From: Dehalococcoidia bacterium | GTDB lineage: Bacteria; Chloroflexota; Dehalococcoidia; Bin125 | Direction: 5' to 3' | DNA length: 64,000 bases | NCBI GenBank assembly: GCA_965207695.1 | Contig: CBDBNA010000012.1 | Coordinates: forward strand, 20,191 to 84,190 | In this document: positions 693-45,628 of the stretch, piece after piece | How positions within the stretch are numbered: the stretch's first letter is position 1 | How the letters are laid out: every line of letters begins with the position of its first letter | Translations under genes and position numbers: made by a program | Notes under the pieces: model-generated | What the model saw: the letters and a program-made list of their open reading frames with translations, nothing else | Databases searched by the model: none | What the model was told of the DNA's origin: nothing

Positions 693-3590
693 ATGCCGCT
701 GCCGGTCCTCCGCCGCGCGCTCGTCGTGGGCGTCGCGCTGCTGGCGCTGGCCGCAGGGATGTGGGCATCGCACGGGACTGCGTCGGCGCAGGCGCCGGCG
801 GCCAGCACGATCACGACGGAGCTCCAACCCGGTTGGAATCTCGTGGGCTGGATGGGCTCCGACACCACCACCCGGGCGCTCTTCGACGCCCTGCCGGAGT
901 TGAACCTCATCGTCGCCTGGGACGATGAGGCGCAGCGGCACCGCTGGGCGTGGCGCCCGGCGGTCGGGTCGCGGGGGCTGCGGGGCGTCAGCCGGGGCCA
1001 AGGGCTGGCCCTGCACATCGGGGGCGAGGCCGCCGTCGAGTGGACGCGCCCGGTGGCGGAGGGCGTCGTGCTGCTCCCGCTGCGTGCGGGAAACAACCTC
1101 GTGACCTGGGGCGGACCCGACGGAACGCCGATCGAGGAGGCGCTCGACTGGCTGGGCGACGCCGTCATGAGCACGTCGCGGTGGAACGCGGGCATGCGGG
1201 AGAGCGAGCGCTACCGCCCCGGTGCATCCACCGCCGCCAACACGCTGCGCACGCTGAATCACGGCGACGCGTTGTGGGTGCGGCTATCGGAGGATGCGAG
1301 TTGGTGGCAGTCGGGCACGGCGGGCACGGAGTTCGTTTTCGAGGAACCGCTGCATCCGGAGACAGAGGCGGCGCTGCGTGCGGAAGTCGCCAGCGTGCTG
1401 GCGTTCTACTACGAGAGTTATGGGCTGGAGCCGGTCGATCTCTCGGTAGCTACTTATCCACGCCTCGACTTCAGCGCCAGTGCGTGGGCAGGGGAGATCA
1501 ACATCAGCAAGCGGAGGTACAGCAACCCACTGCCGGATTTCGCCATCCCACACGAGTACTTCCATGTCTTGCAATTCGAGTGGGCGAAGCTCTCGCCGAA
1601 CCAATTCGAGACGCCGAACTGGCTGATCGAAGGCACGGCCACGTACATGGAGGGTCTGTACTACGAGCAACGACTTGGCGAGACGGGGGCCGATGTGCGC
1701 GCGGATTGGTGGCGGCGCACGATCGGGCGCGGCGTAGGATCCCTACCGCTGGACCACTGGGTCTACGACCACGGGCAACAGGGAGATCAGCGAATCACCG
1801 CAGGGTACTTCGTGGGCGCGTTGGCGACGGACTGGCTGGTCAGGCGAGCGGCGGCATTGTCCGCGGGGACGCGCTTCGATCCGCTGGAGCCGCCGGAAGT
1901 GGTTACCCGGCCGGACTATAACGCCCACTTCGAGTTCTTCCGCCTGCTGCCGATGTCGGGAACCTGGGAGGAGGCGTTCGAGGCGGCCTTCGGCATCGGG
2001 GTCGAAGACTTCTACGAGGTGTTCGAGGAGTATCGGATCGCGCTGGGCGCGCAGTACCTGCCGCACTTGGCCGACGACCGCGATGAGCCGAAGCTCGTGC
2101 TACTGGGCGAGATTCCGTCCGACGTCCAGACCCGCCTCCGCGACCAGTTCGACACAGCCCAGGAACTCTTCGGCGACAGGTTCAGGAGCGGGCCGGTGGA
2201 CTACACGGTCTACGTTGCAGCCAACGACCGGTCGGCGGAGCCCACGTACCAGCACGTCTTCGGGTCCGCGTCCTTCTGGTTGGGGGAAGACATCTCCCCC
2301 ATCGCACAATGCAGCAGGAGCACTACAGGATTCACCTTATTCGTGGTCCTGGCGAACTGCCCAGCGGAGCCGATCGGAGACCTACTCGGGGAGTATCACT
2401 TCGAGGAGGTTCTGGAGCGGGTCGCGCCGACGGATGTGCTCACGCCGTTGCTGCCGGGATACAACTCTCCCGGTCCCTACTGGTTGCGGCTGGCAACGCG
2501 CGGCTACGCCGAGCATGCGTATCGGGAAGTGCTGGGAATCGAGACACTCGATGAAGCTCGCCGCACGCAAGCGGAGATCGCGGCCCGGACGGCGGCGTCG
2601 CTGCGCAGCGTCACGGCATATCCACCCGTGCCGGAGGCTCCGGACGAGGCGACTGCCGCCCTCAGTTTCCTGGCAGGCGACTGGTTGGTGACGCGGGCCG
2701 GGGAACCGGCGATCTTCGAGTACTACCGGCTGCTGGGGTCCAACGACAGTTGGCAGGCGGCGTTCGAGCGCGCGTTCGGGATCACGATCGACGACTTCTA
2801 CGAGGAGTTCGCGGCGTACCGGGCCGTGGCGGCGCCGGCGCGGCCGCCCGAGGAGCGCGACGCGCCAGAACTCGTGCTGCTGAGTGAGATCCCCGCCTGG
2901 GACGCAGCCAGAGTGCGTGCGTACTTCGAGGCCACGCAGGCGTTCTTCGGCGATCGTCTTGGTGGCGAGCCGGTCGACTACGCGGTGTACGTCGTGGCCA
3001 GCGGCCCCGAGGCGGCAGCGCACCAGGACATCATTGATGTGATCCCGCCCGGGGCGTGCTTTTTTGCACAGCGTCCCTGGACCACGGCGGTCATAGTGCT
3101 ACGACGCTGCATCCTATCCCCCGTGGACATCCTGGGACAGTTCCACTTCGCCAGCGTGCTGCGGCAGTTGACGCCTCCGGGCGCCTGGGAGTACTGGCCC
3201 TCCGATTACAAGCTGCAGGGGTCCTACTGGCTTGACGTCGGGCTGCGTCGATACGCCGATCGCGCCTTCCTCGATTCGCTGGAGCTTGAGGATCTCGACC
3301 GGAGTCGCCGCCGATCGGCGAATTTCGCGATCTGGGCGGAGGGCACGCTGTACGACCTTGAGCCCTACCGGGATTCGGGTCGGTCTCCTGATCACGAGAC
3401 CGAGGCGCTGAGCTTCCTGGCGGCCGACTGGCTGGTGGCGCGAGCCGGGGAGCGGGCGATCTTCGACTACTACCGCTTGCGCCAGTCCGCCGCCAACTGG
3501 CAGGACGCCTTCGAGGGCGCCTTCGGCATCACCATCGACGACTTCTACGCGGCGTTCGCGGAGTACCGCGCCGCCGGCTTCGAGCGCTGA
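693..3590 (+). CDS. secreted repeat protein (signal peptide, three ~280-aa internal repeats, one HExxH motif)
   Basis: 965-aa ORF. The N-terminal hydrophobic signal (LVVGVALLALAAGMWASHGTASA) suggests secretion. A ~280-aa module is repeated three times, ending in FEYYRLL..WQAAFE.AFGI.IDDFYE.F..YRA. The first module contains IPHEYFHVLQFEW, a possible Zn-metallopeptidase HExxH. Codon usage is consistent with the rest of the window. Confidence 0.6.
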   Translation: MPLPVLRRALVVGVALLALAAGMWASHGTASAQAPAASTITTELQPGWNLVGWMGSDTTTRALFDALPELNLIVAWDDEAQRHRWAWRPAVGSRGLRGVSRGQGLALHIGGEAAVEWTRPVAEGVVLLPLRAGNNLVTWGGPDGTPIEEALDWLGDAVMSTSRWNAGMRESERYRPGASTAANTLRTLNHGDALWVRLSEDASWWQSGTAGTEFVFEEPLHPETEAALRAEVASVLAFYYESYGLEPVDLSVATYPRLDFSASAWAGEINISKRRYSNPLPDFAIPHEYFHVLQFEWAKLSPNQFETPNWLIEGTATYMEGLYYEQRLGETGADVRADWWRRTIGRGVGSLPLDHWVYDHGQQGDQRITAGYFVGALATDWLVRRAAALSAGTRFDPLEPPEVVTRPDYNAHFEFFRLLPMSGTWEEAFEAAFGIGVEDFYEVFEEYRIALGAQYLPHLADDRDEPKLVLLGEIPSDVQTRLRDQFDTAQELFGDRFRSGPVDYTVYVAANDRSAEPTYQHVFGSASFWLGEDISPIAQCSRSTTGFTLFVVLANCPAEPIGDLLGEYHFEEVLERVAPTDVLTPLLPGYNSPGPYWLRLATRGYAEHAYREVLGIETLDEARRTQAEIAARTAASLRSVTAYPPVPEAPDEATAALSFLAGDWLVTRAGEPAIFEYYRLLGSNDSWQAAFERAFGITIDDFYEEFAAYRAVAAPARPPEERDAPELVLLSEIPAWDAARVRAYFEATQAFFGDRLGGEPVDYAVYVVASGPEAAAHQDIIDVIPPGACFFAQRPWTTAVIVLRRCILSPVDILGQFHFASVLRQLTPPGAWEYWPSDYKLQGSYWLDVGLRRYADRAFLDSLELEDLDRSRRRSANFAIWAEGTLYDLEPYRDSGRSPDHETEALSFLAADWLVARAGERAIFDYYRLRQSAANWQDAFEGAFGITIDDFYAAFAEYRAAGFER

Positions 3591-6254: not shown

Positions 6255-7124
6255 CTACTCCCCCGCCGCGACGGCGTCTTTGTACTGCCGCACGGCGTCG
6301 ATGTGGTCGCCGACATCGCGGAGGCCGGCGTTCATCGTGGCGACCGAGATCTCCGTCGCGCCGATCTCCCGCCAGCGCTGGATGTGGGCCCGCCAGAGGT
6401 CGGGGTTGCCGCCGCGGAACTGCGACTGCGGGCCGATGCCGAAGTCGTCCGGGGAGCGTCCCGCCTCGCGCAGGTAGCCGCGGATGCGATCGGCCTGCGC
6501 GGCGGCCTCCGGCGTGGGCGGAGAGACGGGGAACCAGCCGTCGCCGATGCGGGCGGCGCGTTTGAGCTGGGGCTCGGCGCTGCCGCCGAACCAGACGGGG
6601 ATGGGCCGGCGCGGGCGCGGGTCGATGCCGGCCTTGGCGACGGTGTGGAACTCGCCCTGGAAGTCGACGACGGGATCGCTCCAGAGGCGCCGCATCAGGT
6701 CCACCTGCTCCTCCTGACGCCGCCCGCGGTTGCGGAAGTTCTGGTCGAGCGCCTCGTACTCGACGTAGTTCCAGCCGCTGCCGATGCCGAGCCGGAAACG
6801 GTCGCCGGAGAGGACCGCGAGCTGCGCCGCCTGCTTGGCAACGAGCGCCGTCTGCCGCTGCGGCAGGACCAGCACGCAGGTCGCGAGTTCGAGCGAGGTG
6901 GTCACGGCGGCCAGATAGGCGATGGTGACGAAGACCTCGTGGAAGGGGTGGTCGATGGTGTAGGGGCCATCCCAGCCGCCGGGACGATCGGGATCGGCGC
7001 CGAGGACGTGGTCGTAGAGGAGGAGTTGGGAGAAGCCCAGCGCCTCGACCGCCTGCGCGAAGTCGCGCAGCGCCGCCGGGTCCGGTCCGATCTCCGTGGT
7101 GGGCAGGACGGCGCCGATGCGCAT
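6255..7124 (-). CDS. LLM-class F420-dependent (luciferase-like) oxidoreductase
   Basis: The track ORF 6255..7346 contains MRIGAVLPT at aa 75, which is the likely true start. Luciferase-like TIM-barrel signature: LGFSQLLLYDHV..LVLPQRQTALVAKQAAQL..IGSGW. Confidence 0.85.
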   Translation of the reverse strand: MRIGAVLPTTEIGPDPAALRDFAQAVEALGFSQLLLYDHVLGADPDRPGGWDGPYTIDHPFHEVFVTIAYLAAVTTSLELATCVLVLPQRQTALVAKQAAQLAVLSGDRFRLGIGSGWNYVEYEALDQNFRNRGRRQEEQVDLMRRLWSDPVVDFQGEFHTVAKAGIDPRPRRPIPVWFGGSAEPQLKRAARIGDGWFPVSPPTPEAAAQADRIRGYLREAGRSPDDFGIGPQSQFRGGNPDLWRAHIQRWREIGATEISVATMNAGLRDVGDHIDAVRQYKDAVAAGE

Positions 7125-7311
7125 GGCTGCATCCCTTCGTCGAAGTCCGCGCGTGTGGGCAGGGTAGCGCCAAGTCTCGCCCGTACCGCTCGGGGGTATG
7201 CAAGGGGGCCGGACGCCGCTACGATCCTCCGCAATCGCCCGCAGGCCCGCAGAGGGAAACAATTCGGCGCCGGCCGGGGACAGCCGGGCGGGCGCAACGA
7301 CGGAGGCTGGA

Positions 7312-8100
7312 GTGACCACGACCCAGGCGACCTTCAGCGAATGCACGGTCTCCGTGGCCGGCCTCTCGATGCACGTGATGCAGGGCGGCGACGGGCCCAG
7401 CGCGGTCTGGCTGCACCACTCGACGGGGCCGCTGGGCTGGCTACCGTTGCACGAACGGCTGGCGGAGCGCCTGCACGTGAGCGCGCCCGACCTGCCCGGC
7501 TACGGCCGCTCGGAGCGGCCCGTCTGGGCGCGGCATCCGCGCGACATCGCGGTGCTGCTGGGCCGGGCCATCGCGAAGCTGGACTTGGAGCCCACGCTGC
7601 TGATCGGGCACGGCTTCGGCGGTTGGGTGGCGGCGGAACTGGCGACGATGAACCCCTCGGCGCTGCGCGGCCTCGTTCTCGTGGGCGCCGCCGGCCTCAA
7701 GCCGGACGAGGGCGAGATCATCGACCATATCTTCTTCACGTTCAGCGACTACGTGAAGGAGGGCTTCCACGCCGCCGCCGCCTTCGAAGCGTTCTTCGGC
7801 GCCGACGGGTCCAAGGAGCACAAGGAGCTCTGGGACTTCAGCCGCGAGATGACCAGCCGCCTCACCTGGAAGCCCTGGATGTTCAACCGCCAGCTGGCGC
7901 CGCTGCTGCCCGAGGTGGACGTGCCAACGCTGCTGGTCTGGGGAGCGGAGGACCGCGTCGTGCCCCTAGACTGCGGTCGGCAGTACGCGGCCGCGATGCC
8001 CAACGCCCGGCTGGAGATCGTGCCGGGCGCCGGCCACCTGGTCGAGTTGGAAGCGCCGGATGCGCTGGCGGCGCTGATCACGGAATTCGCGGGCGCGTAG
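7312..8100 (+). CDS. alpha/beta hydrolase fold protein
   Basis: ORF 7198..8100 with a probable GTG start at about 7312 (VTTTQATFSECTVSVAGLSMHV..). Contains HGFGGW (nucleophile elbow G-x-S/H-x-G variant) and the DLPGYGRSERP lid region. Confidence 0.7.
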   Translation: MTTTQATFSECTVSVAGLSMHVMQGGDGPSAVWLHHSTGPLGWLPLHERLAERLHVSAPDLPGYGRSERPVWARHPRDIAVLLGRAIAKLDLEPTLLIGHGFGGWVAAELATMNPSALRGLVLVGAAGLKPDEGEIIDHIFFTFSDYVKEGFHAAAAFEAFFGADGSKEHKELWDFSREMTSRLTWKPWMFNRQLAPLLPEVDVPTLLVWGAEDRVVPLDCGRQYAAAMPNARLEIVPGAGHLVELEAPDALAALITEFAGA

Positions 8101-8124
8101 CCCGCGAGCGAGAGGTCCCACGCA

Positions 8125-9468
8125 ATGTTCATTGGCTACTTCACCGAGCGCCCGTATCAGGATCCGCGCACGGGCTGGTTTGGCTCGACCGGCCGGGAGA
8201 TCACCGACCTGGCCATGTCGAACGGCGACTACGACCCCAAGCTGGGCGCCGACCTGTACAACCGCTACCTCGACGAGAAGATCTACGCCGAGGAGATGGG
8301 CTTCGACGGGCTGATGCTCAACGAGCATCACAGCACGCCGTTCTGCATGGGCGGCGTGATGAACGTCGAGGCGGCGATCCTGGCGCGGATCACCAAGCGG
8401 GCGAAGATCGTGCTGCTGGGCAACGTGCTGCCGATCTGGGACGACCCCCTGTGGCTGGCCGAGGAGCTGGCGGAGATCGACATGATCTCACGGGGCCGGC
8501 TGGTGACTGGCTGGGTGCGCGGCACGGGCCGGGAGAGCGTGGCACACAACGCCCAGTCGCCCTACAACTGGGAACGCTTCCAGGAGGCGCACGACTTCAT
8601 CGTCAAGGCCTGGACGACGCCCGGTCCCTGGCGCTGGGAGGGCGAGCACTACCAGTTCCGCTACGTGAACCCCTGGGCGCGGCCCTACCAGGATCCGCAC
8701 CCGCCGATCTGGATCCCGGGCATCCTCTCGCGGAACACCGTCGATTGGGCGGCGAAGCATCGCTACCCGTACATCATGCTGGCGACGGACCTGGAGCCCA
8801 CCAAGAAGTCGTTCGAGTACTACGACGAGCAGGCGCGGGAGCGCGGCTACGAGGCCGGCACGCAGCACCACGGCTACCTGTTCAAGGTGCACGTGGACGA
8901 GACCGACGAACTCGCCGACGAGGTGGGCCGCAAGTACGTCCAGGGGCCCAGCAACCCCTTCCTGGAGGGCAACCAGGGCACGGTGCTCAGCAACCTGCAG
9001 AACCTGCCGGGCCTGACCTCCCGCACGCAGGTGCTGCCCACGAGCGCCAGCTTCGCCGCCCTCCAGTCGCGCGGCCGGGCCGACGACCACGTCAAGCAGG
9101 GCGGCGGGACCGCCACGCAGGCCGAACTGGACAAGAAGGACCTCGGCGACCCGTTCGGCGCCTACCAGTCGCAGAAGGAGCGCTACACGATCATCACCGG
9201 TACGCCCAAGACCGTGATCCCCAAGGTGCGGCACGTGCTGGAGACGCTGCGGCCGGGCTCGATCTTCTTCTGGGACGGCGACGGCGCGATGACGCACGAG
9301 GACTCCATGCGCTCGCTGCGGCTGATGGGCGAAGAGGTCATCCCCGCCGTGCGCGAGATGGGCAAGGAGCTGGACCTGCCGGGCCCGTTCGAGATGGACC
9401 CGTACACGCTGGCTCCGGTGGAGGAGAAGACGGAGGCGGAGACCGTCGTGGCGCCCGCCGGCGACTAG
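8125..9468 (+). CDS. LLM-class flavin-dependent oxidoreductase (large ~447-aa subtype)
   Basis: 447 aa with a luciferase-like monooxygenase fold (GFDGLMLNEHHSTPF..VLLGNVLP..HPPIWIPG). Confidence 0.8.
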   Translation: MFIGYFTERPYQDPRTGWFGSTGREITDLAMSNGDYDPKLGADLYNRYLDEKIYAEEMGFDGLMLNEHHSTPFCMGGVMNVEAAILARITKRAKIVLLGNVLPIWDDPLWLAEELAEIDMISRGRLVTGWVRGTGRESVAHNAQSPYNWERFQEAHDFIVKAWTTPGPWRWEGEHYQFRYVNPWARPYQDPHPPIWIPGILSRNTVDWAAKHRYPYIMLATDLEPTKKSFEYYDEQARERGYEAGTQHHGYLFKVHVDETDELADEVGRKYVQGPSNPFLEGNQGTVLSNLQNLPGLTSRTQVLPTSASFAALQSRGRADDHVKQGGGTATQAELDKKDLGDPFGAYQSQKERYTIITGTPKTVIPKVRHVLETLRPGSIFFWDGDGAMTHEDSMRSLRLMGEEVIPAVREMGKELDLPGPFEMDPYTLAPVEEKTEAETVVAPAGD

Positions 9469-9528
9469 CCTCGGGGACGCTCGGTCGCCGGCGGTACGCG
9501 ACGGCAGCCCCTGCCCGCGAGGCGCCCC

Positions 9529-11217
9529 ATGCCCAGCGACGCCCCATCCGACGAGTCCGACGCGCCCGACCCCTGGGACGTGATCGTCGTGGGGGGCGGG
9601 CCGGGTGGCGCCGCGGCGGCCACGCTGCTGGCGCGGCAGGGATGGCGGGTGCTCTGCTGCGAGCGCGAGCGCTTCCCCCGGCCGCACGTGGGCGAATCGC
9701 TGCTGCCGGCGTCGCTGCCGATCCTCGACGCGCTCGGCGTGCTGGAGGCGGTCGAGCGTGAGGGCTTCGTCGAAAAGCCCGGCGCGACGATGGTCTGGGG
9801 CCGCGACACGGCCCCGTGGTCGTGGTATTTCCGCGAGACGAATCGGACACACTCGCACTCGTACCAGGTCTGGCGCCCCCGCTTCGATCAACTGCTGCTC
9901 GACAACGCGCGCGCCGCCGGCGTCGAGGTGCGGGAGGGCTGCCGCGTCGCGGAAGTGCTCTTCGACGGCGAGCGGGCGATCGGCGTCCGCATCGCCGGAG
10001 AAGCAGCCGGCAGCGCGGAGGAGCGGGCGCGCTTCGTCGTGGACGCCAGCGGGCAGGCGGGGTTGATCGCCCGCGCGCGGTCGTTGCGCCGCTACGACGA
10101 CGCCTTCCGCAACCTGGCCGTCTACGCCTACCACGAGGGCGCCGCCCACCTGCCGCCCCCCGACGCGGGCAACATCTTCATCGAGTCCACGCGCGACGGC
10201 TGGTGCTGGACGATCCCGCTGGGCGGCGGGCGCAACAGCGTGGGCGCCGTCGTCGACAGCGCGCGGGGGCAGCGCGGCATCGCCGAGTTGGGGACGGAGG
10301 GCTTCTACGAGGCGCAACTGGCCCTGGCCCCGCGCACGACGGCGCTGCTGGCCGGGGCGAGGCGCGTCGACGGGCCGCACGTCGCGCGCGACTGGTCGTA
10401 CGTCGCCGGGCGGCTGACCGGGGAGGCCCACGTGCTCGTGGGCGACGCCGCCTGCTTCGTCGATCCGCTGTTCTCGTCGGGCGTGCACCTGGCGCTGTCG
10501 TCGGCGGTGCTCGCGGCGGCCTACGTGACGACCTCGCTGCGCCGCCCCGAGATGGGCGCGGCCGCCGCGGCCGTCTATGCCGAGCTCTACCTCCAGCAGT
10601 ACGGGCACTTCCGGGAGCTGGCGCGCCTGTTCTACGCCAGCAACCGCTCCGTCGAGTCGTACTTCTGGGAGGCGCGCCGCATCGTGGGTGACGATGCGAG
10701 CACGCCCCGCGAGGCCTTCGTGCGGGCGGTGGCCGGGCAGCCCCCGCAGGGCTACGAGCGGGTCGTGCTGGAGCGCGGCGACGCCCCGGCCGACTTCGCC
10801 GGCGACGTGCACGCGCTGGAGTCGGAGCGGGCGGCGCGCCGCCGCGCCTGGGACGCGGCGCTGTCGGGCGGGCATCCGCCGGCGGCGCTGCTGGCGGCGA
10901 TCGCCCGGCCGACGGCCGGCGTGCGAGTGGAACGCAAGCCGGTGCTGGAGGGCGGCGAGTTCCTCTGGGGCGACGTGCTGGTCAGCGGCAGCCGCCCGGA
11001 AGGAACCCCGATCAGCCCCCTGGTCGCCCGGCTGCTGGCGGCGCTGGACGGACGGCGCAGCGTGGCCGGGGCGCTGGAGGACGTCGTTGCGGAGTTCCCC
11101 GCCGATCGGGCCGGACGGATGGGCGCGCCGCTGCTCACGACGCTGGGCATCCTCTACGTCGACGGCGTGATCGACGGGCTCGACGCGGCGCTCGGAGTCT
11201 CGTGCGAGGGTAACTGA
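9529..11217 (+). CDS. flavin-dependent halogenase-like FAD-binding protein (tryptophan-halogenase family)
   Basis: 562 aa. Contains an N-terminal GxGxxG (VVGGGPGGAAAA), HVGESLLP (the G-x-G-E-x-x-x-P halogenase motif) and GWCWTIPL, matching the W-x-W-x-I-P signature that distinguishes halogenases from FAD monooxygenases. Confidence 0.7.
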   Translation: MPSDAPSDESDAPDPWDVIVVGGGPGGAAAATLLARQGWRVLCCERERFPRPHVGESLLPASLPILDALGVLEAVEREGFVEKPGATMVWGRDTAPWSWYFRETNRTHSHSYQVWRPRFDQLLLDNARAAGVEVREGCRVAEVLFDGERAIGVRIAGEAAGSAEERARFVVDASGQAGLIARARSLRRYDDAFRNLAVYAYHEGAAHLPPPDAGNIFIESTRDGWCWTIPLGGGRNSVGAVVDSARGQRGIAELGTEGFYEAQLALAPRTTALLAGARRVDGPHVARDWSYVAGRLTGEAHVLVGDAACFVDPLFSSGVHLALSSAVLAAAYVTTSLRRPEMGAAAAAVYAELYLQQYGHFRELARLFYASNRSVESYFWEARRIVGDDASTPREAFVRAVAGQPPQGYERVVLERGDAPADFAGDVHALESERAARRRAWDAALSGGHPPAALLAAIARPTAGVRVERKPVLEGGEFLWGDVLVSGSRPEGTPISPLVARLLAALDGRRSVAGALEDVVAEFPADRAGRMGAPLLTTLGILYVDGVIDGLDAALGVSCEGN

Positions 11218-11280
11218 GACTGCTAGACTGCGGCCCCCGCGGGTCGACCGTGCGCGCGGGTCAGTTGAGGGAGCAGATCC

Positions 11281-12360
11281 ATGCGAGCCGCCGTCTACAA
11301 CGGACCACACGAGGAGCAGGTCTTCGAGGAACTCGATATCGCGGATCCGATTGGGTACGAGGTGCTCGTGCGCACGGCGGCCGCCGGGGTCTGCCACTCC
11401 GACCTGAAATTCGTCGATGGGCTCATGCCGCTGGAGGCTCCGGCGGTCCTGGGGCACGAGTCGGCGGGCGTCGTGGAGGCGGTGGGGCCGAACGTGACCG
11501 AAGTCGCGCCGGGCGATCACGTCATCGCTTGCCTGTCGGTCTTCTGCGGGCGCTGCGACCGCTGTCTGACCGGCGAGACGTACCTCTGCATGAAGCCACC
11601 GTCGCGCTCGCCCGAGGAGCCGCCGCGACTCTCGCTGAACGGGGAGCCGGTGGCGCAGTTCGTGAACGTCGGCGGGTTCGCGGAGCAGATGCTTCTGCAC
11701 GAGAGTGGGGTCGTGCGGATCGACACGGACGTGCCGTTCGACGCGGCGGCGCTGATCGGCTGCGGCGTGACGACGGGGATGGGCGCAGCCCTGAACACGG
11801 CCCGCGTCTCGCCCGGCTCGACGGTCGCGGTATACGGCGCGGGCGGCGTCGGCCTCTCGGCGATGCAGGGGGCGCGCATCGCGGGGGCGCGGATGATCAT
11901 CGCCGTGGACGTCGAGGAGCACAAGCTGCGCACGGCGCGCGATCTGGGCGCCACGCACGGCATCGACGCCTCGGCGGGGGATCCGGTGGAGCAGATCCGC
12001 GATCTGACGGGCGGCCAGGGCGTGGACTACTCGTTCGAGGCGATCGGGCTCAAGCGCACGCTGCAGCAGGCCTGCGACTCGATCCGCAACGGCGGCATGA
12101 CGACCGCGATCGGGGGGATCGAGCTCGACCAGAAACTCGAGATCTCGGCCGAGTGGTTGTTCCAGCGGACGCTGGTGGGCTCCGCGCTGGGCTCGAACCA
12201 CTTCAAGACCGACACGCCGAAGTACATCGAGTTCTACCGGCAGGGGCGGTTGAAGCTGGACGAGATGGTGACCAGGCGCGGCCGGCTCGAGGATCTGAAC
12301 GACGCGCTCGAGTCGATCCGGCAGCGGGAGGTCGCACGGACCGTCCTCATGTTCGACTGA
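11281..12360 (+). CDS. Zn-dependent alcohol dehydrogenase (MDR family), paralog 1
   Basis: 359 aa with GVCHSDLKF (catalytic Zn), a C-x-x-C-x-x-C-x7-C structural Zn motif (CGRCDRCLTGETYLC) and GAGGVGL (NAD binding). Confidence 0.9.
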   Translation: MRAAVYNGPHEEQVFEELDIADPIGYEVLVRTAAAGVCHSDLKFVDGLMPLEAPAVLGHESAGVVEAVGPNVTEVAPGDHVIACLSVFCGRCDRCLTGETYLCMKPPSRSPEEPPRLSLNGEPVAQFVNVGGFAEQMLLHESGVVRIDTDVPFDAAALIGCGVTTGMGAALNTARVSPGSTVAVYGAGGVGLSAMQGARIAGARMIIAVDVEEHKLRTARDLGATHGIDASAGDPVEQIRDLTGGQGVDYSFEAIGLKRTLQQACDSIRNGGMTTAIGGIELDQKLEISAEWLFQRTLVGSALGSNHFKTDTPKYIEFYRQGRLKLDEMVTRRGRLEDLNDALESIRQREVARTVLMFD

Positions 12361-12461
12361 CGCCGCCCGAGCCTGAAGTCTCGCGCGGGGGCAATTGAGA
12401 CTGCTAGACTGCGGCCCCCGCGGGCCGACCGCGCGCGCGGGCCAGCCGAGGGAGCAGAGCA

Positions 12462-13541
12462 ATGCGAGCCGCCGTCTACCACGCACCACACGAGGAGCAG
12501 GTCTTCCAAGAGGTCGACGTCGCGGAGCCGATTGGGCGCGAGGTGCTCGTGCGCACCGTGGCCAGCGGCGTCTGCCACTCCGACCTGCACTTCGTCGATG
12601 GACTCTGGCCCATCGAGGGTCCGGCGATCCTGGGACACGAGTCGGCCGGCATCGTTGAGGCCGTGGGGCCGCACGTGACCGAGGTCGAGCCGGGCGATCA
12701 CGTCATCGCCTGTCTGTCGGTCTTCTGCGGCCGCTGCGACCGCTGTCTGACCGGCGAGACGTACATCTGCGAGAGCCGCCCGACGCGATCGCCCGAGGAG
12801 CCGCCGCGCCTCTCGCTGGACGGCAAGCCGGTGGCGCAGTTCGCGGAGGTCGGCGGCTACGCGGAGCAGATGCTCCTGCACGAAAGCGGCGTGGTGCCGA
12901 TCGACAAGGACGTGCCGTTCGACATCGCGGCGCTGATCGGCTGCGGCGTGACGACGGGGGTGGGCGCGGCCCTCAACACGGCCCGCGTGAAGCCGGGCTC
13001 GACGGTCGCCGTGTACGGCGCGGGCGGCGTGGGCCTCTCGGTGATCCAGGGCGCGCGCATCGCGGGGGCGCGGATGATCATCGCCGTGGACGTCGAGGAG
13101 CACAAGCTGCGTACGGCGCGCGACCTGGGCGCCACGCACAGCGTCGACGCCACGGCGGGCGACCCGGTCGAGCAGATCCGCGATCTGACGGGCGGTGGGG
13201 GCGTGGACTTCTCGTTCGAGGCGATCGGGCTCAAGCGCACGGTCGAGCAGGCCTTCCAGTCGATCCGTAACGGCGGCATGACGACGTCGATCGGGATGGT
13301 CCCGCTGGGCGAGAAGCTCGAGATTCCCGCCGAGTGGATCTACCAGCGGACGCTGGTGGGCTCCGCGCTGGGCTCGAACCACTTCAAGGTCGACATGCCG
13401 AACTACATCGAGTTCTACCGCCAGGGCCGGCTGAAGCTGGACGAGATGGTGACCAAGCGCGGCCGGTTGGAGGACCTGAACGACGCCTTCGAGTCGATCC
13501 GGCAGCGCGAGGTCTCGCGAACCGTCCTGATGTTCGACTGA
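12462..13541 (+). CDS. Zn-dependent alcohol dehydrogenase (MDR family), paralog 2 (tandem duplicate)
   Basis: 359 aa, about 85% identical to the upstream paralog, with the same motifs. The ~60-nt leader is also duplicated. Confidence 0.9.
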   Translation: MRAAVYHAPHEEQVFQEVDVAEPIGREVLVRTVASGVCHSDLHFVDGLWPIEGPAILGHESAGIVEAVGPHVTEVEPGDHVIACLSVFCGRCDRCLTGETYICESRPTRSPEEPPRLSLDGKPVAQFAEVGGYAEQMLLHESGVVPIDKDVPFDIAALIGCGVTTGVGAALNTARVKPGSTVAVYGAGGVGLSVIQGARIAGARMIIAVDVEEHKLRTARDLGATHSVDATAGDPVEQIRDLTGGGGVDFSFEAIGLKRTVEQAFQSIRNGGMTTSIGMVPLGEKLEIPAEWIYQRTLVGSALGSNHFKVDMPNYIEFYRQGRLKLDEMVTKRGRLEDLNDAFESIRQREVSRTVLMFD

Positions 13542-13589
13542 CGCGCCGTGGTGCGGCTGCGGTCCGCGTAGCGTCGTGACGCCCGGCGG

Positions 13590-14060
13590 CTAGCGCTCCG
13601 TCACCTCCGCCGAGCACGTGACGTCGATCGCGTCCTTGACGCTCTCGTGCGCCGGGCAGGCCGCCGGGTGCACGCGCAGCGCCCGATCGAACGCCTCACG
13701 CTGCCCGGCCGGGATGGACGCGTGGTAGGTCACGTGGATCTTCGTGATGCGGATGGTGTCGTTGCCCGTCCCCTCGATGGTTCCCTCGACGTCGGCGGTG
13801 TAGCTGGACCGGTCGAACTCGACCTTGCGGGCGCTCAGCGCACGCGCGAGCGTGCCGTACATTCAACCGCCCACCGCCGCCACGATGTGGTCCAGCGTCG
13901 CGGCGATGGGCGGGCCCTCTCCGACGCCGTAGTACTCGCGCAGGGCGCCCTGCACGCCGTAGGGCACCGGCTCCGGCACCTCGCCCAGGTAGGCGTGCCG
14001 CAGGCCGCCCTGGAACTCCAGGCGGGTCTTGCTGATGTAGGTGAAGCCGTCGTCCGGCAT
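13590..14060 (-). CDS. OsmC/Ohr-family peroxiredoxin with in-frame TGA at the catalytic Cys position (candidate selenoprotein; alternatively pseudogene)
   Basis: Track ORFs 13863..14060 and 13590..13862 are in the same frame, separated only by TGA (13863-13865, minus strand). The joined product ..PYGVQGALREYYGVGEGPPIAATLDHIVAAVGG[TGA]MYGTLARAL.. ..RVHPAACPAHESVKDAIDV aligns with E. coli OsmC (..[34 protein letters not shown].. ..KAKAGCPVSQVLKAEITL). The TGA sits exactly where the peroxidatic Cys belongs and the second Cys-Pro is intact. Confidence 0.6.
13832..13852 (-). other. candidate bacterial SECIS-like hairpin downstream of the in-frame UGA
   Basis: The mRNA reads UGA-AUGUACGGCA-CGCUCGCG[CGUG]CGC(U)GAGCG: an 8-bp GC stem with one bulged U and an apical loop CGUG. 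The loop lies 19-22 nt after UGA, within the 16-37 nt window described for bSECIS elements. Confidence 0.35.
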
Positions 14061-19974: not shown

Positions 19975-21756
19975 CTACGACAGCGGCGTCCAGACGAACG
20001 TGTCGGGGTGGAACTGGCTCCAGGCGAACCAGAACGCCTGATGGCTGGCGATGGGCGTGCCGTCCGCCAATTCCGCTCGGAGCCCGCCCGCGTCGATCCT
20101 GACGCGGATGCCGGCCAGCATCACGTCGGCGCCGTCCTCAAGCGCGGCGCGCGCCTGCGCGACGGGGAACGCGACGTGCTGGCCGTCGGGCGTCTCGATG
20201 CCGAGCACCTGCTCCTGCACCGGCAGCCTGATGTCGACCCCGCCGACCGGGAAGATGGGGCCGTCGTCGTCGCGGCCGCCCAGCGGGTCGAACGGATAGA
20301 AGCGCCCGAGTCCGCCGTCGGGCGCGACGATGGTGGTGTGCGGGTAGGCGGCCTTCCACTCTCCCCAGGTGCTCGTCACCACCGTGAGCATCTCCAGGAC
20401 GTAGTTCTCGTCCTGCAGCGGGCCCGAGACGGCGATGCCCTTGAACGTGTCGAAGACGGACATGGTGTTGTAGTCGAACATCACCTTGTTCGAGCGGGAA
20501 AGCAGGCCCGACGTGCGCAGCTCGATGTTGCGGAAGCCGGGCGGCGGCTGGTCGGTGAAGTAGGCCTGGGCCGAGCCGCACAGCGTGCAGTAGGGCATGC
20601 CGATGCGCCGGCCGCCGACGGTGTCGTTCACCATCTCGTGCACTTCCATGATGTTCTTGGGGTAGGCGCGGGCCTCGCCGTTGACGACGACGCCGAAGAC
20701 CAGCCGCTCGTCGGGGTACCAGTCCCCGCCCGCCGCGTCGGTGACGGCGGGGTCGTTGATCGCGGGGATGCACCCCCGGATGCAGGGCCAGTCGACCTGG
20801 TGGGGCTGGCGGTCGTCCATGAAGACGCCGCCCCAGCTCAGCAGGCGCCAATCGATGTCGGCGTCGGCGTCGCTGAAGAAGGGGATCCAGTCCGGCTCGA
20901 TGAACTCGAAGTAGAGGCGCTTCCAGCGGACGTAGTCGGGCGGGGCGGGCAGATCCCAGGCGATCAGCCAGTTGGTGACGAGGGGCCAGGCGAAGCCGCG
21001 GGGCACCTCGGTGCCCGTCAGCCGCTCGAACGCCAGGACCGCCGTGTCGGAGGCCTCGCCGACCTGAAGGAACCGCAGCAGATCGGAGAGCAGCCAGGCG
21101 ACGCGCGCGTCGCCGTACCCGCCCACGCGGGCGAGCGCGTCCAGATCGACGCCGTCGATGTCGAAGACGCGGTCGAGGTCGGCCGCGATCCGGGGATCGA
21201 GCGGGCCGTCCGGCACCGCGGGCGCCGGTGGCACGATGGACCCGTCGGCGAGGAGGGCAGCGGAGGTGGGGGGATCGTCGGCGGGGGAGGGCTCATCGGC
21301 GACGGCGGGCTCGTCCTCGGCGGCGTCCTCGGTCGCGTCGGCGGCGGTGGGTGCCTCGTCGGCGGCGTCCTCGGTCGCTTCGGCCGCGGCGGGTTCCTCG
21401 TCGGCAGGGTCTTCGGTCGCTTCGGCGGCGGCGGGTTCCTCGTCGGCGGCGTCTTCGGTCGCTTCGGCCGCAGCGGGTTCCTCGTCGGCGGCCTCATCGG
21501 CCGGGGCGGCCTGGGCTTCCGTAGTGTCTTCGACCGCCTCGGCGGCGGGCTCGTCCTCGGCCGGCTCATCGGCGGGGGCGACCTGGGCTTCCGCAGTGTC
21601 CTCGACCGCCTCGGCCGCGGCGGGTTCGTCGGCGGCGGGCGCGGGGGGGTCGGCCGGATCCGGGCTCGGGTCATCCGATCCGCACGCGGCGGCGATCAGG
21701 GCGAACAGCGCGATCGGCAGCAGCAGCGCCGCGAGTCTGGTGCGAGAGAAGGTCAC
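19975..21756 (-). CDS. DUF3179-domain lipoprotein with long acidic low-complexity linker
   Basis: 593 aa. A signal peptide plus lipobox (LIAAACGS) is followed by a ~130-aa D/E/A/P-rich region with EEPAAAEATEDAAD repeated three times. The C-terminal DUF3179-like core contains ARAYP..MVNDTVGG..PYCTLCGSA..LLSRSNKVMFD. Confidence 0.75.
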   Translation of the reverse strand: MTFSRTRLAALLLPIALFALIAAACGSDDPSPDPADPPAPAADEPAAAEAVEDTAEAQVAPADEPAEDEPAAEAVEDTTEAQAAPADEAADEEPAAAEATEDAADEEPAAAEATEDPADEEPAAAEATEDAADEAPTAADATEDAAEDEPAVADEPSPADDPPTSAALLADGSIVPPAPAVPDGPLDPRIAADLDRVFDIDGVDLDALARVGGYGDARVAWLLSDLLRFLQVGEASDTAVLAFERLTGTEVPRGFAWPLVTNWLIAWDLPAPPDYVRWKRLYFEFIEPDWIPFFSDADADIDWRLLSWGGVFMDDRQPHQVDWPCIRGCIPAINDPAVTDAAGGDWYPDERLVFGVVVNGEARAYPKNIMEVHEMVNDTVGGRRIGMPYCTLCGSAQAYFTDQPPPGFRNIELRTSGLLSRSNKVMFDYNTMSVFDTFKGIAVSGPLQDENYVLEMLTVVTSTWGEWKAAYPHTTIVAPDGGLGRFYPFDPLGGRDDDGPIFPVGGVDIRLPVQEQVLGIETPDGQHVAFPVAQARAALEDGADVMLAGIRVRIDAGGLRAELADGTPIASHQAFWFAWSQFHPDTFVWTPLS

Positions 21757-23068: not shown

Positions 23069-23779
23069 TCAGACGAAGCGGGTGGGCAGTCCCTGGCTGA
23101 CGCGCAGTTCGAAGGTGTGTGCGGTGGCGGGCTGGGTCGCCAGGAACACCGCGGCGTCGGCGATGTCCTCGGCCTGGATGAGGGACTCGGGGTCCTCGTC
23201 GGGGAAGTCCTCGTGGCGCATGCGGGAGACGGTGGCATCGGGCAGGATGACGTGCGTGCGGATGCCGCGGTGCAGGTACTCCTGGATGCAGACCTTCGTC
23301 AGGCCCATCACGCCGTGCTTCGAGGCGGTGTAGGCGGAGCGGTTGACTCCCCCTCCCACCACGCCGGCGCCGGAGCTGATGTTGATGATGCAGCCGCCGC
23401 CCTGCTCGAGCATCGGCGGGACCGCGTACTTGGTGCAGAGGAACACGCCGCGCAGGTTGACGTTGATCACGTGGTCCCAGTCCTCGGTGGGCAGCTCGTG
23501 CAGGGGCAGGCGGGTGACCGCGCCGGCGTTGTTGATCAGGATGTCGATGCGGCCGTAGGCGGCCAGCGCGCCGTCGATGAGGGCGCGGATGTCGGCCTCG
23601 TCGCTCACGTCGCAGCGGATGGCCGTGCCGCCGACCTCGGCGGCCACCGCCTCGATCTCATCGACCGAGCGGGCCGAGCAGACGACCTTGGCGCCCTCCT
23701 TCGCGTAGGCGATGGCGATCGCCCGGCCGATGCCGCGTCCGGCGCCGGTGACGACCGCGACTTTGCCGTCGAGTTGCAT
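23069..23779 (-). CDS. SDR-family oxidoreductase
   Basis: 237 aa with TGAGRGIGRA (NAD(P) binding), NNAG, and a Y-x-x-x-K catalytic region (YTASKHG). Confidence 0.85.
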   Translation of the reverse strand: MQLDGKVAVVTGAGRGIGRAIAIAYAKEGAKVVCSARSVDEIEAVAAEVGGTAIRCDVSDEADIRALIDGALAAYGRIDILINNAGAVTRLPLHELPTEDWDHVINVNLRGVFLCTKYAVPPMLEQGGGCIINISSGAGVVGGGVNRSAYTASKHGVMGLTKVCIQEYLHRGIRTHVILPDATVSRMRHEDFPDEDPESLIQAEDIADAAVFLATQPATAHTFELRVSQGLPTRFV

Positions 23780-23926
23780 GGGGGGTCTCCTATTCGTTCG
23801 GCTGAGGCCGGGTGGGTCCGGCGCCGCCCCAACGGTAGCCACGAACCGGGCCGGCGTCAGCCCGACGGCGGCCGGGCTGGGATGGGCGGGGGATCGATCG
23901 GTACCCTGCCGGGACGGAGCCGCGCC

Positions 23927-25168
23927 ATGACGACACTCGACACACACGCCGACACGATCATCCCGTCCCCGGACGACGCCCCGGCGTCGGCGCTGACGGG
24001 GGTGCGGGTGCTCGACTTCACGCGCGCCCAGCAGGGCCCGTTCGCGACGCTGCTGCTGGCCGACATGGGGGCGGAGGTGATCAAGGTCGAGCCGCCCGGC
24101 GGCGAGATGGGCCGCGCCAGCGGACTCAATCCCGAGGGCTTCTCCTCGTATTTCGAGGGGCACAACCGGGGCAAGCGCAGCATCACGCTCGACCTCAAGC
24201 GGCCGGGGGCGGTCGACGTCGTGCGCCGGCTGGTCCCGACCTGCGACGTGGTCGTGGAGAACTTCCGGCCGGGCGTGATGGAGCGGCTGGGCATCGGCTA
24301 CGAGGACTGCCGGCGGCTGCGGGCCGACATCATCTTCGCCTCGGCGTCGGCCTGGGGGCGGGACGGCCCCTGGGCGGCGCGCGGGGGCTACGACCACGTC
24401 GCGCAGGCGCTGAGCGGCGTGATGTACGAGCAGGGCGAGGGCCCCGGCGGCGAACCGCAGGCGCTGATCGGCGGCTTCGCCGACCAGGTCGGGGCGATGC
24501 TGCTGGCCTTCGGCATCGCGTCGGCGCTGTACGTGCGCCAGCGCGACGGGGTCGGCCAGCACATCGACGGTTCGCTGATCGGCGGCATGGTGGCGATGCA
24601 GTCGAAGCAGATCATGGAGTTCCTGCGCAGCGGCGTGCAGCGCGGCTTCCAGCGGCGCCGGGCGGCGACGTACACCAACTACGCCTGCGCCGACGGCCGC
24701 CACGTGGCCATCGCCGCGAACGCGCAGGACATGTGGGAGCGCCTCTGCGACGCCCTCGACGCGCCGCAGCTCAAGAGCGACGCGCGCTTCGCCGACCCCT
24801 TCGGGCGGGATCGCAACAAGGACGCGCTGGTCGAGGCGCTCGACGCGATCTTCCGCACGCGGCCGCTGGCCGACTGGCTGGAGCCCCTGGAGCGGCACGA
24901 CGTGCCGCACGCGCCGGTCCTCGACTACGCCGGCATGAGCGCCCACCCGCAGTACTGGGCGAACGGGTACCTGCAGGAGATCGAGACGCCGCACCTGGGG
25001 CCGATGCGGGTGCCCGGGCCGCCCATCCGCATGAGCGCGACGCCGCCGCGCGTGCAGGGCAGCGGCCCCATCCTGGGCTTCCACACCGAGGAGATCCTGC
25101 AGTCCGTCGGGTACGGCTGGGACGAGATCGAGGCGCTGAAGGACAGCGGCGCGATCCGCACGGCATGA
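23927..25168 (+). CDS. CoA-transferase family III (CaiB/BaiF/Frc-like) protein
   Basis: 413 aa. The N-terminal GVRVLDFTRAQQGPFATLLLADMGAEVIKVEPPGG and the active-site Asp region GGYDHVAQALSG are present. Confidence 0.85.
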   Translation: MTTLDTHADTIIPSPDDAPASALTGVRVLDFTRAQQGPFATLLLADMGAEVIKVEPPGGEMGRASGLNPEGFSSYFEGHNRGKRSITLDLKRPGAVDVVRRLVPTCDVVVENFRPGVMERLGIGYEDCRRLRADIIFASASAWGRDGPWAARGGYDHVAQALSGVMYEQGEGPGGEPQALIGGFADQVGAMLLAFGIASALYVRQRDGVGQHIDGSLIGGMVAMQSKQIMEFLRSGVQRGFQRRRAATYTNYACADGRHVAIAANAQDMWERLCDALDAPQLKSDARFADPFGRDRNKDALVEALDAIFRTRPLADWLEPLERHDVPHAPVLDYAGMSAHPQYWANGYLQEIETPHLGPMRVPGPPIRMSATPPRVQGSGPILGFHTEEILQSVGYGWDEIEALKDSGAIRTA

Positions 25169-39387: not shown

Positions 39388-39577
39388 ATTCCACCTCCCC
39401 GGTCCCGTGCAGAGGCCCCGTGCAGAGGCCCCGTGCAGAGGCCGCATGCAGAGGCAGAGCGTAGCGCCCCGCGCCGCCGGGGGGTGAGACTGACGTCGCG
39501 CCGCAGGCCGTAGACACCCGCCGCGGTCGGTGGGAGCCTGCACCGGGACAGGGCTGATGGCGAACGGAGAGCGAGCG

Positions 39578-40849
39578 ATGACCGACCCGACCGGCGGCGC
39601 GCTGGACGGCATTCGCCTCCTCGACCTGAGCACGCAGCCGGGGCAGTATGCGGGGCGGCTGCTCGCCGACCTGGGGGCCGACACGATCAAGGTCGAGCCG
39701 CCCGGCGGCGACGCGATGCGCCTCGTGGGTCCCTTCGAGGGCGACGCCGTCGGCCCCGAGTCGAGCCTGACCTGGCGCTACTTCAACGCCAACAAGCGCT
39801 CGGTAACCTGCAACCTCGACCTGCCCGGCGGCCGGCGCCTGCTGCGGGAACTCGCGCGCGACGCCGACGTGGTGCTCGAGTCGTACGGGCCGGGCTACAT
39901 GGAGTCGCGCGGCGTGGGCTTCGATGCCCTGCGCGCGGTGCGGCCCGGCCTCGTCTACGTCTCGATCAGCGGCTTCGGGCGGGAGGGGCCGCACGCCGGC
40001 TGGCAGGCGACGGAACTCATCGCGCAGGCGGCCTCGGGCGTGCTGACGCTGTCGGGCGACCCGGCGAGCGCGCCGCAGATGCTGGGCGCGAACCAGGCCT
40101 GCATCACGGCGTCGCTGTCGGCCGCGCAGGGCGCGCTGCTCGCCGTCTTCCACAAGGAGCGGACGGGCGAGGGCCAGCTCGTCGAGGTCTCGATGCAGGA
40201 GGCGCTGTCGATCGCACAGGAGACCGCGATGCAGCAGTGGGACTTCCAGCGCACGTCGCGGGAGCGCCAGGGCGAGATCCCCACGCTGCCCGGCCTGGGC
40301 ACCTACGCGACGCGCGACGGCTACGTCTTCTCGATGGTGGGCGGGCCGGCGGGGGCGTCGTGGTCGGAACTGGTCGATTGGCTGATCGAGGAGGGCGCGG
40401 GGGGAGAGCTGGTCGCCGGGCACGAGGCGGCGTTCCGCGCCTTGAACATGGAGACGGCCGTCCAGGCCCTGCGCAACCCCGCCAAGGCGGCGGAGTTCGG
40501 CGCGCTGATGCCGATCGCGCGGGAGACGCTGGCGGCGTTCTTCGCGACGCGGACCAGCCGCGAGATCTATGAGGAGGGCCAGCGGCGGCGCCTGCTGATC
40601 GGGATGGTTTCGACGCCGAAGGAGCTGATGGAGAGCCCGCAGCTCCGCGCCCGCGATTGGCGGCTGCCCGTCGGGGAGGACGGCGCGGCGGCCGACTTGC
40701 CCGGCCCGCCCTACCGGCTGAGCGCCACCCCGGCGACGGTGCGCCGCGCCGCCCCGGCGATCGGCGAGCACAACCGCGAGGTGTGGCTGGAGGAAGTGGG
40801 CATCGCGCCCGAAGAATTCGAGGCGCTGATGGCGGAGGGGGCGATATGA
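39578..40849 (+). CDS. CoA-transferase family III protein
   Basis: The track ORF starts at 39530; 39557 and 39578 are alternative starts. Contains GIRLLDLSTQPGQYAGRLLADLGADTIKVEPPGG and an active-site region with Glu in place of Asp (ATELIAQAASG). Confidence 0.8.
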   Translation: MTDPTGGALDGIRLLDLSTQPGQYAGRLLADLGADTIKVEPPGGDAMRLVGPFEGDAVGPESSLTWRYFNANKRSVTCNLDLPGGRRLLRELARDADVVLESYGPGYMESRGVGFDALRAVRPGLVYVSISGFGREGPHAGWQATELIAQAASGVLTLSGDPASAPQMLGANQACITASLSAAQGALLAVFHKERTGEGQLVEVSMQEALSIAQETAMQQWDFQRTSRERQGEIPTLPGLGTYATRDGYVFSMVGGPAGASWSELVDWLIEEGAGGELVAGHEAAFRALNMETAVQALRNPAKAAEFGALMPIARETLAAFFATRTSREIYEEGQRRRLLIGMVSTPKELMESPQLRARDWRLPVGEDGAAADLPGPPYRLSATPATVRRAAPAIGEHNREVWLEEVGIAPEEFEALMAEGAI

Positions 40850-45517: not shown

Positions 45518-45628
45518 CGTGCGCCCCCGTTCCGGCGGCCCGGCGCCCGTCCGGCGGGCGGATCGCGCCGCGCCGCCCAGTCTAGCGAGCGGGCGGCAGC
45601 CGCGGCGCGGCTGGGCTACCGTGGCGTC

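Follow-up and report, generated by a model that had tools for sequence, protein, structure and literature searches.

To our knowledge, nearly all described flavin-dependent halogenases (FDHs) are tailoring enzymes encoded in gene clusters of the antibiotic type. Their chemistry presumably centers on a lysine at the end of an HOCl tunnel (K79 in PrnA, K76 in CndH, and K71 in CmlS), which acts through a chloramine or by positioning the HOCl, and we take Glu44 and Asp277 of CmlS to be, respectively, the glutamate assisting this lysine and the aspartate linked to the flavin. CmlS, the chloramphenicol 'alkyl halidase' of Streptomyces venezuelae, has a covalently bound flavin and an assigned substrate that is non-aromatic and enolizable, for which an enolate held by a tyrosine has been proposed, and the motif F-x-x-P-x-x-S-x-G is reported in every active FDH (motif definitions as in PMC8407142). 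A related fold is used to a different end in QhpG, a peptidyl-tryptophan dihydroxylase: the paper describing it gives CmlS as the closest structure and reports a winged-helix domain, retention of the WxW pair, and hydroxylation of a peptidyl tryptophan. Here, we describe a halogenase-type gene, the single one of its kind in a window of 64,000 nucleotides (the whole stretch of DNA that was analyzed; positions 20,191 to 84,190 of contig CBDBNA010000012.1, assembly GCA_965207695.1) from an uncultured Dehalococcoidia bacterium. This gene comes last in the core of a conserved operon that codes successively for an α/β-hydrolase-fold protein, a luciferase-like monooxygenase (LLM), and the halogenase, and that is found in many uncultured Dehalococcoidia (SAR202-like and Tepidiformaceae) and in some proteobacterial, Hyphomicrobiales, and Tectomicrobia metagenome-assembled genomes (MAGs). 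We put the chances at slightly better than even that its product is a two-component halogenase dependent on FADH2, O2, and halide, which, jointly with the LLM, would convert a small substrate that is free rather than tethered, probably enolizable or electron-rich, and not part of classical secondary metabolism.

By its sequence, the gene is real and intact, and its product is a member of the FDH superfamily. The window has a GC content of 71% (range 69-75%), and the GC content at third codon positions of the open reading frame (ORF) is 0.94, as in the real genes of the window; a GAGG lies ~7 nt ahead of the ATG, and the 562-aa translation is unbroken. The Pfam model PF04820 (Trp_halogenase) matches the protein with E = 6e-38 (131.2 bits against a gathering cutoff of 21). 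Conservation was assessed in a set of 95 halogenase homologs with 55-96% identity, whose alignment was also the basis of the AlphaFold2 (AF2) model discussed below. The gene and its motifs are as follows:

9529-11217, plus strand: predicted flavin-dependent halogenase gene of the CmlS/CndH type, third gene of the operon (562 aa; matches to PF04820, CndH, FasV, and CmlS)
9592-9609, plus strand: GGGPGG, the GxGxxG dinucleotide (FAD) binding motif, residues 22-27 (G22, G24, P25, and G27 invariant in the 95 homologs)
9685-9708, plus strand: HVGESLLP, residues 53-60, with Glu56 as the equivalent of CmlS Glu44 (alignment to 3i3l)
9775-9777, plus strand: Lys83, the catalytic lysine by alignment (pairs with the lysine of CndH, FasV, and CmlS; invariant in the 95)
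10198-10221, plus strand: GWCWTIPL, the WxWxIP motif, residues 224-231 (G224, W225, W227, I229, P230, and L231 invariant in the 95)
10387-10401, plus strand: RDWSY, residues 287-291, with Asp288 as the equivalent of CmlS Asp277 (alignment to 3i3l)
10441-10494, plus strand: GDAACFVDPLFSSGVHLA, residues 305-322, containing F-x-x-P-x-x-S-x-G (from the sequence, the PDB alignment, and the 95 homologs)

The original prediction, made from the sequence alone, had named the first, second, and fourth of these motifs, and all three are present at the residues given. It had further made a halogenase assignment depend on the equivalent of PrnA K79. This residue is found as Lys83 within EKPGATMVW (residues 82-90): in HMMER alignments against the PDB, it pairs (FVEKPGATMVW) with the lysine of IKRGGTFRWG in CndH and of VKKPSATFLWG in CmlS, namely Lys76 and Lys71. 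The parallel comparison with Glu346 of PrnA/RebH holds only for the tryptophan-halogenase type, to which this protein does not belong; here, the relevant glutamate is Glu56, which is invariant. The remaining motifs are similarly fixed across the 95 homologs, with H53, G55, E56, S57, L58, L59, and P60 invariant in HVGESLLP (in which region the residue number is the native CmlS number + 12), D288, W289, S290, and Y291 in RDWSY, and F310, D312, P313, L314, F315, S316, and G318 in FVDPLFSSG (residues 310-318). Lys83, Glu56, Asp288, WxWxIP, and F-x-x-P-x-x-S-x-G are also retained in a gammaproteobacterial clade with 41% identity. Asp288 aligns with Asp277, through which CmlS holds its FAD as a covalent 8α-flavin ester, and would be the candidate site of any such bond here.

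A sequence search of the PDB recovered CndH (3E1T) as the best match (E = 2e-86, 294 bits, ~41% identity), followed by FasV (8ZOP; E = 3e-79, 270 bits, ~39% identity) and CmlS (3I3L; E = 2e-77, 265 bits). RadH, ChlB4, PltA, Mpy16, and Bmp2 score 125-164 bits, QhpG (7CTQ) 73, CtcP 61, PltM 38, and PrnA 22, the last over residues 17-73 only. This order of scores places the protein alongside CndH, CmlS, and FasV, which are phenolic and alkyl halogenases, and it bears out the superfamily membership originally predicted; the non-halogenating flavin monooxygenases, with which a grouping would have spoken for a different activity, all score at or below 73 bits against 294 for CndH. Of the NCBIfam models, the CmlS equivalog NF033113 reaches 308 of the 900 bits required and aligns over profile positions 4-393 of 570 only, and the model of the hydroxylase QhpG, NF049967, reaches 220.5 of the 240 bits required; these sub-cutoff scores indicate that the protein is orthologous to neither CmlS nor QhpG. 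We regard it as a member of what is probably a new orthologous subfamily, with CndH, FasV, and CmlS as the nearest characterized relatives. The automatic names of its homologs include 'tryptophan 7-halogenase', 'FAD-dependent oxidoreductase', and 'flavin-dependent dehydrogenase'; the first of these is not supported and is rejected on similarity, PrnA matching with just 22 bits at the N-terminal FAD motif.

The QhpG match raises the alternative that the protein is a non-halogenating flavin monooxygenase, which would have kept the motifs and use the flavin hydroperoxide directly, hydroxylating a substrate in series with the LLM as part of oxidative catabolism. The QhpG model falls just below its cutoff, and QhpG itself combines a CmlS-like fold with the WxW pair and yet hydroxylates, so that WxW alone is no proof of halogenation. 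However, the invariance of Lys83, Glu56, WxWxIP, and F-x-x-P-x-x-S-x-G is hard to account for without halide chemistry, and the proven halogenases are four times nearer in bits than QhpG (294 versus 73). We hence judge this alternative unlikely, albeit the most serious of those considered here.

The ~100-aa C-terminal extension noted in the original prediction is real and folded, and it corresponds to an additional domain:

10924-11175, plus strand: predicted C-terminal winged-helix domain of the halogenase, residues 466-549 (AF2 models and Foldseek)

The AF2 model of the full protein, built from the 95-sequence alignment, has a predicted local distance difference test score (pLDDT) of 86.4 and a predicted TM-score of 0.87; in it, the linker 403-420 is disordered, and residues 466-549 form three β-strands followed by α-helices. 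The C-terminal domain modeled alone (residues 445-562) has a pLDDT of 92.6. Foldseek searches of the PDB with the whole model recover CmlS first (E = 2e-37 over 558 columns that include the C-terminal domain), and then FasV and CndH. The isolated domain finds the winged-helix domain of QhpG as the best match (E = 6.6e-3, 32% identity over 78 columns), the C-terminus of CmlS (E = 0.017, probability 0.95), and, weakly, the leader-peptide-binding RiPP (ribosomally synthesized and post-translationally modified peptide) recognition element (RRE) protein TbiB1 (E = 0.47, TMt 0.65). Consistent with the first of these, a profile of the domain matches residues 355-385 of QhpG ('VRVERRPVL...') at E = 0.07. 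The same profile run against 1.84 billion representatives returns only the halogenase family and its fragments, indicating that the domain is unshared at the sequence level with other architectures, and Pfam gives no match to the C-terminal region even at E up to 1. As modeled, the extension is thus a winged-helix domain of the CmlS/QhpG type. A RiPP halogenase with a fused RRE was also considered and is rejected as the main reading: there is no Pfam match, the fold match to TbiB1 is weak, and no conserved small ORF or peptide gene adjoins the operon in the loci compared.

The presence of this domain brings in a further alternative, namely that the protein is a maturase comparable to LodB, GoxB, or QhpG, whose target, halogenated or hydroxylated at one residue, would be the LLM or the hydrolase-fold protein, with the winged-helix domain docking onto it. 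The NCBIfam matches after CmlS are indeed QhpG, LodB, and GoxB, all modifiers of a tryptophan in the product of a neighboring gene, and it is the QhpG winged-helix domain that both the fold search and the profile single out, with a leader-binding RRE protein also retrieved. On the other hand, CmlS has the same winged-helix domain and an assigned small-molecule substrate, the RRE protein is matched only weakly (E = 0.47), with no conserved peptide gene nearby, and the catalytic domain is much nearer to CndH, FasV, and CmlS than to QhpG. We consider a maturase role improbable, and the genes upstream, which would encode its targets, bear on it further.

These two genes, which precede the halogenase on the same strand, are:

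7198-8100, plus strand: α/β-hydrolase-fold protein, first gene of the operon (Pfam, NCBIfam, and PDB searches; synteny)
8125-9468, plus strand: LLM of 447 aa, 60 nt upstream of the halogenase gene (Pfam Bac_luciferase, E = 1e-32)

To establish the conservation of this arrangement, we scanned GTDB with each species represented by a single genome, which gave at least 536 stretches with relatives of the halogenase, and compared the loci of the best 80. Nearly all of these are Dehalococcoidia, Chloroflexota, SAR202, or Tepidiformaceae MAGs, many from sponges or the open ocean, along with one Entotheonella and one Hyphomicrobiales MAG; the window is closest to three Dehalococcoidia/Chloroflexota MAGs (L001-L003), in which the halogenase is 90-96% identical. 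All ORFs of the loci were clustered and compared with the neighbors in the window, with 77 loci having enough upstream DNA. An LLM ortholog (65-80% identity, 600-735 bits) lies upstream of the halogenase on the same strand in 57/77 loci, the LLM paralogs in the loci scoring at or below 97 bits, with the exception of L020, where the ortholog is displaced 6.7 kb upstream. The hydrolase-fold ortholog is found ahead of the LLM in 41/69 loci. Searches from the LLM side likewise recover the halogenase downstream, including in Dehalococcoidia contigs.

A gammaproteobacterial MAG (L081) and a Logan contig (L083) carry the trio with its genes 2-26 nt apart, and it is found again, with a fumarase-like gene and ligases, in contig L088, which carries the halogenase homolog P0429. 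The LLM lies directly upstream of the halogenase in both a Tectomicrobia locus and a locus on a marine-metagenome contig whose protein NCBI labels Planctomyces, and in the latter the hydrolase-fold gene stands ahead of the LLM. Flanking the trio in L081, L083, and L088 are genes for an ACAS_N-type acyl-CoA ligase and for a divergent protein resembling class-I fumarases; genes for a carboxylesterase, an MFS_2 transporter, and an acyl-CoA dehydrogenase are added in L081 and L083, and glutathione S-transferase genes in L081. In L091 (9910-12767 of a low-coverage contig), the operon's halogenase gene is split by the insertion of an rve-type transposase. A promoter and terminator scan of 6900-13800 in the window was uninformative.

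The original prediction had reported no obvious partner reductase or biosynthetic cluster and had placed the gene between an LLM oxidoreductase and two tandem Zn-ADHs. In part this holds up: no flavin reductase, non-ribosomal peptide synthetase (NRPS), polyketide synthase (PKS), or carrier protein was found in the ORFs scanned across the window. A reading of the gene as an orphan amid unrelated neighbors is not supported, since the LLM is a conserved operon partner (57/77) and the hydrolase-fold gene is usually one too (41/69). The synteny also speaks to the alternative that the protein is a carrier-protein-dependent ('variant B') halogenase, with the rest of its secondary-metabolite pathway encoded elsewhere and the neighbors a coincidence. 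CndH, the closest relative, itself belongs to variant B (PMC8407142), and sponge-associated Chloroflexota are known to carry PKS clusters (PMC6306507). Yet no carrier protein, NRPS, or PKS is found in the scanned ORFs of the window or among the recurrent neighbors of the 80 loci, and the association with the LLM and hydrolase-fold genes across phyla is beyond coincidence. Moreover, 55-60% identity over many Dehalococcoidia species indicates a vertically kept, housekeeping-like operon rather than sporadic tailoring in biosynthetic gene clusters (BGCs). A carrier-protein-dependent enzyme of a hidden BGC is hence largely ruled out by synteny, and we hold it to be very improbable, more so than any other alternative weighed here.

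Members of the LLM family from Chloroflexota and proteobacterial MAGs share 75-84% identity. For the LLM of the window, the nearest solved structures are the alkanal monooxygenases of the LuxA type (residues 54-272 only, E = 2e-20), and it falls below every NCBIfam cutoff. An insertion at residues 281-345 (8965-9159) is of low complexity and shows a mean column conservation of 0.45 among 61 orthologs, versus 0.84-0.87 elsewhere and in the barrel. The hydrolase-fold protein has a true start that is probably downstream of 7198, as its orthologs are 258-270 aa long. In its nucleophile elbow, LLIGHGFGGW, a glycine replaces the serine, whereas the catalytic histidine is kept in the orthologs inspected; a glycine is found at the nucleophile position in 30/44 of the operon orthologs, proteobacterial ones included, and a G-x-S-x-G in the other 14/44. 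This substitution makes it unlikely that the protein of the window is a classical serine hydrolase. It resembles C-C hydrolases, esterases, and perhydrolases in a generic manner only; identifying it with haloalkane dehalogenases or meta-cleavage hydrolases was considered and rejected, given the generic matches and a nucleophile position occupied by Gly, not Asp or Ser.

Several of these features could also be read in terms of the maturase alternative raised above. The tight order of an LLM gene followed by a flavoprotein gene resembles lodA-lodB, the LLM is unusually conserved across phyla, and the hydrolase-fold partner often lacks its nucleophile; by analogy with the LodA/LodB, GoxA/GoxB, and QhpC/QhpG pairs, a protein-derived cofactor or a modified active site might be generated in the partner, though we regard this as a long shot. 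Against it, the LLM is not adjacent in 20/77 loci, and in L089 the halogenase occurs with no LLM in 16 kb. There is also no obvious target site in the LLM, whose sole poorly conserved part is the surface insertion.

Turning to the genes outside the core trio, the neighborhood described in the original prediction, with an LLM upstream and two Zn-dependent alcohol dehydrogenases (ADHs) downstream, is borne out by Pfam and NCBIfam:

11281-12360, plus strand: Zn-dependent ADH 1 (Pfam/NCBIfam; lineage-specific)
12462-13541, plus strand: Zn-dependent ADH 2, a tandem paralog (Pfam/NCBIfam; lineage-specific)

It is only in L001-L003, the closest relatives, that the Zn-ADHs directly follow the halogenase. 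In one Dehalococcoidia clade, the hydrolase-fold, LLM, and halogenase genes are continued on the same strand by genes for MOSC, GNAT, and class III aminotransferase proteins, and in another the halogenase is followed by a cyclase/amidohydrolase resembling kynurenine formamidase (clade extensions observed in L020, L032, L040, L043, L044, L052, L056, L061, L062, and L090). An aldehyde-oxidase-like Mo enzyme is encoded upstream in eight loci. The accessory genes (ADHs, aminotransferase, Mo enzyme, and others) suggest aldehyde or amine chemistry, and together with the alkanal-monooxygenase-like LLM they point, weakly, to carbonyl substrates derived from aldehydes or amines. The window at large is rich in catabolic paralogs of the SAR202 style, including five family III CoA-transferases, three LLMs, two enolase-superfamily enzymes, three Zn-ADHs, short-chain dehydrogenases/reductases, esterases, an amidase, TauD, PhyH, AOR, and a peptide ABC transporter. 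This catabolic style (CoA-transferases, LLMs, enolase-superfamily enzymes, ADHs, and esterases) would suit the hydroxylase alternative, as would the neighbors of the proteobacterial trio, which include genes for acyl-CoA ligases, a fumarase-like protein, and an acyl-CoA dehydrogenase.

Certain other features of the window are recorded here in their own right. The family III CoA-transferases are encoded at 23117-25168, 39530-40849, 40657-42129, 46911-49400, and 51941-53131, one of them being of double length (829 aa); the ORFs 39530-40849 and 40657-42129 overlap by ~190 nt, which leaves their starts uncertain. Expansion of CoA-transferase paralogs is typical of SAR202-like genomes. Two DUF3179 proteins are encoded at 19975-21756 (minus strand) and ~49800-50791 (plus strand), the start of the second being unclear because the long ORF in which it lies (46895-50791) overlaps the CoA-transferase gene in another frame. 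A 965-aa ORF at 693-3590 (plus strand) has no Pfam match and a faint NCBIfam match of the HExxH metalloprotease-like kind (E = 8e-5). A tungsten-type aldehyde:ferredoxin oxidoreductase (AFOR_N/AFOR_C; 43799-45748, minus strand) lies beside a TauD-family dioxygenase and an amidase; it fits the aldehyde theme and is not linked to the operon.

For the two-component halogenase that we favor, a mechanism can be outlined by extension from established FDH chemistry (PMC8407142). The protein would combine a catalytic domain of the FAD/monooxygenase-like type with a C-terminal winged-helix lid that closes the substrate pocket. A flavin reductase encoded elsewhere would supply FADH2, which would form the flavin C4a-hydroperoxide on reaction with O2; a halide held at the FVDPLFSSG site would then attack the hydroperoxide to yield HOX. 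The wall formed by the WxWxIP motif (Trp225 and Trp227) would hold the substrate off the flavin and block direct oxygenation, with the HOX instead passing through the tunnel to Lys83, assisted by Glu56, and Lys83 handing on the electrophilic halogen to an electron-rich carbon, such as that of an enol/enolate or a phenol-like ring. The LLM and the halogenase would share a free small molecule outside NRPS/PKS metabolism, as tethered or peptide substrates are unlikely given that no carrier protein, NRPS, or PKS was found in the scanned ORFs of the window and no conserved small ORF lies next to the operon. This molecule could possibly be an enolizable aldehyde or ketone provided by an ADH, an aminotransferase, or a Mo-oxidase, and α-halogenated via its enol, as proposed for CmlS.

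A number of observations weigh against this proposal. At the position of Tyr350 of CmlS, the proposed enolate stabilizer, the protein has Phe361 as read from the PDB alignment. Besides the near-threshold score of the QhpG model and the hydroxylating precedent of an enzyme with the same WxW pair, the NCBIfam LodB and GoxB models also match the protein. No flavin reductase is evident among the recurrent neighbors inspected in the 80 loci, nor in the window, although FDHs are able to use any unlinked flavin reductase (PMC8407142). The 20/77 loci with no adjacent LLM, noted above, also count against it, and the loss of the nucleophilic serine of the hydrolase-fold protein in most lineages renders a simple pathway of halogenation, oxidation, and hydrolysis insecure. 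The basis of the substrate assignment is limited to the variable accessory genes. Finally, the homologs with a named source all come from MAGs or metagenomes, and the literature searched offers no characterized member of the subfamily and no study of the operon.

The gene is nonetheless more interesting than an orphan would have been, even with a function that is putative. SAR202-like Dehalococcoidia are dominant in the dark ocean and in sponge microbiomes, and they are thought to oxidize recalcitrant dissolved organic matter. In many such genomes, a halogenase with every catalytic determinant fixed is kept, at 55-80% identity, in an LLM operon that is not part of a BGC. If the enzyme does halogenate, the operon would be a concrete and abundant candidate for marine organohalogen formation or for a catabolic, 'cryptic' halogenation. 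A maturase role, if real, would be a first for an enzyme with halogenase motifs, and in a very abundant deep-ocean lineage. One of the many unexplained flavin-monooxygenase paralogs of SAR202 gains a fixed partner, and the pair is tractable for heterologous expression. A 2025 preprint gene survey has recorded genes for flavin halogenases and for hydrolytic dehalogenases in marine Dehalococcoidia, assigning neither context nor function to them.

Set beside the known systems, the protein shares with PrnA/RebH the PF04820 domain, the GxGxxG and WxWxIP motifs, and, putatively, the chemistry of the lysine and the HOCl tunnel, but it does not have their tryptophan-binding module, and no equivalent of Glu346 is expected in it. 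QhpG is similar in joining a CmlS-like fold to a winged-helix domain, and provides the best match for the C-terminal domain; as in the present operon, the genes for QhpG and for the LodB/GoxB maturases adjoin that of a functional partner. They differ in that these enzymes hydroxylate rather than halogenate, and in that our locus is without qhp, lodA, or goxA. With CndH and FasV, the catalytic domain has its highest sequence similarity, and every motif is identical in type. However, CndH has been assigned a carrier-tethered tyrosine analog in a PKS/NRPS cluster (chondrochloren), whereas no carrier protein occurs here; FasV, at 412 aa, is without the winged-helix domain; and neither is paired with an LLM. 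CmlS differs in its full-length sequence (~29% identity), in having Tyr350 where our protein has Phe361, and in its genomic setting, the chloramphenicol cluster being absent here and the halogenase gene lying in the LLM/hydrolase-fold operon. It is with CmlS, though, that the protein shares its entire three-part architecture including the C-terminal winged-helix domain, and the predicted catalytic residues correspond throughout, Glu44, Lys71, and Asp277 of CmlS being matched by the invariant Glu56, Lys83, and Asp288.

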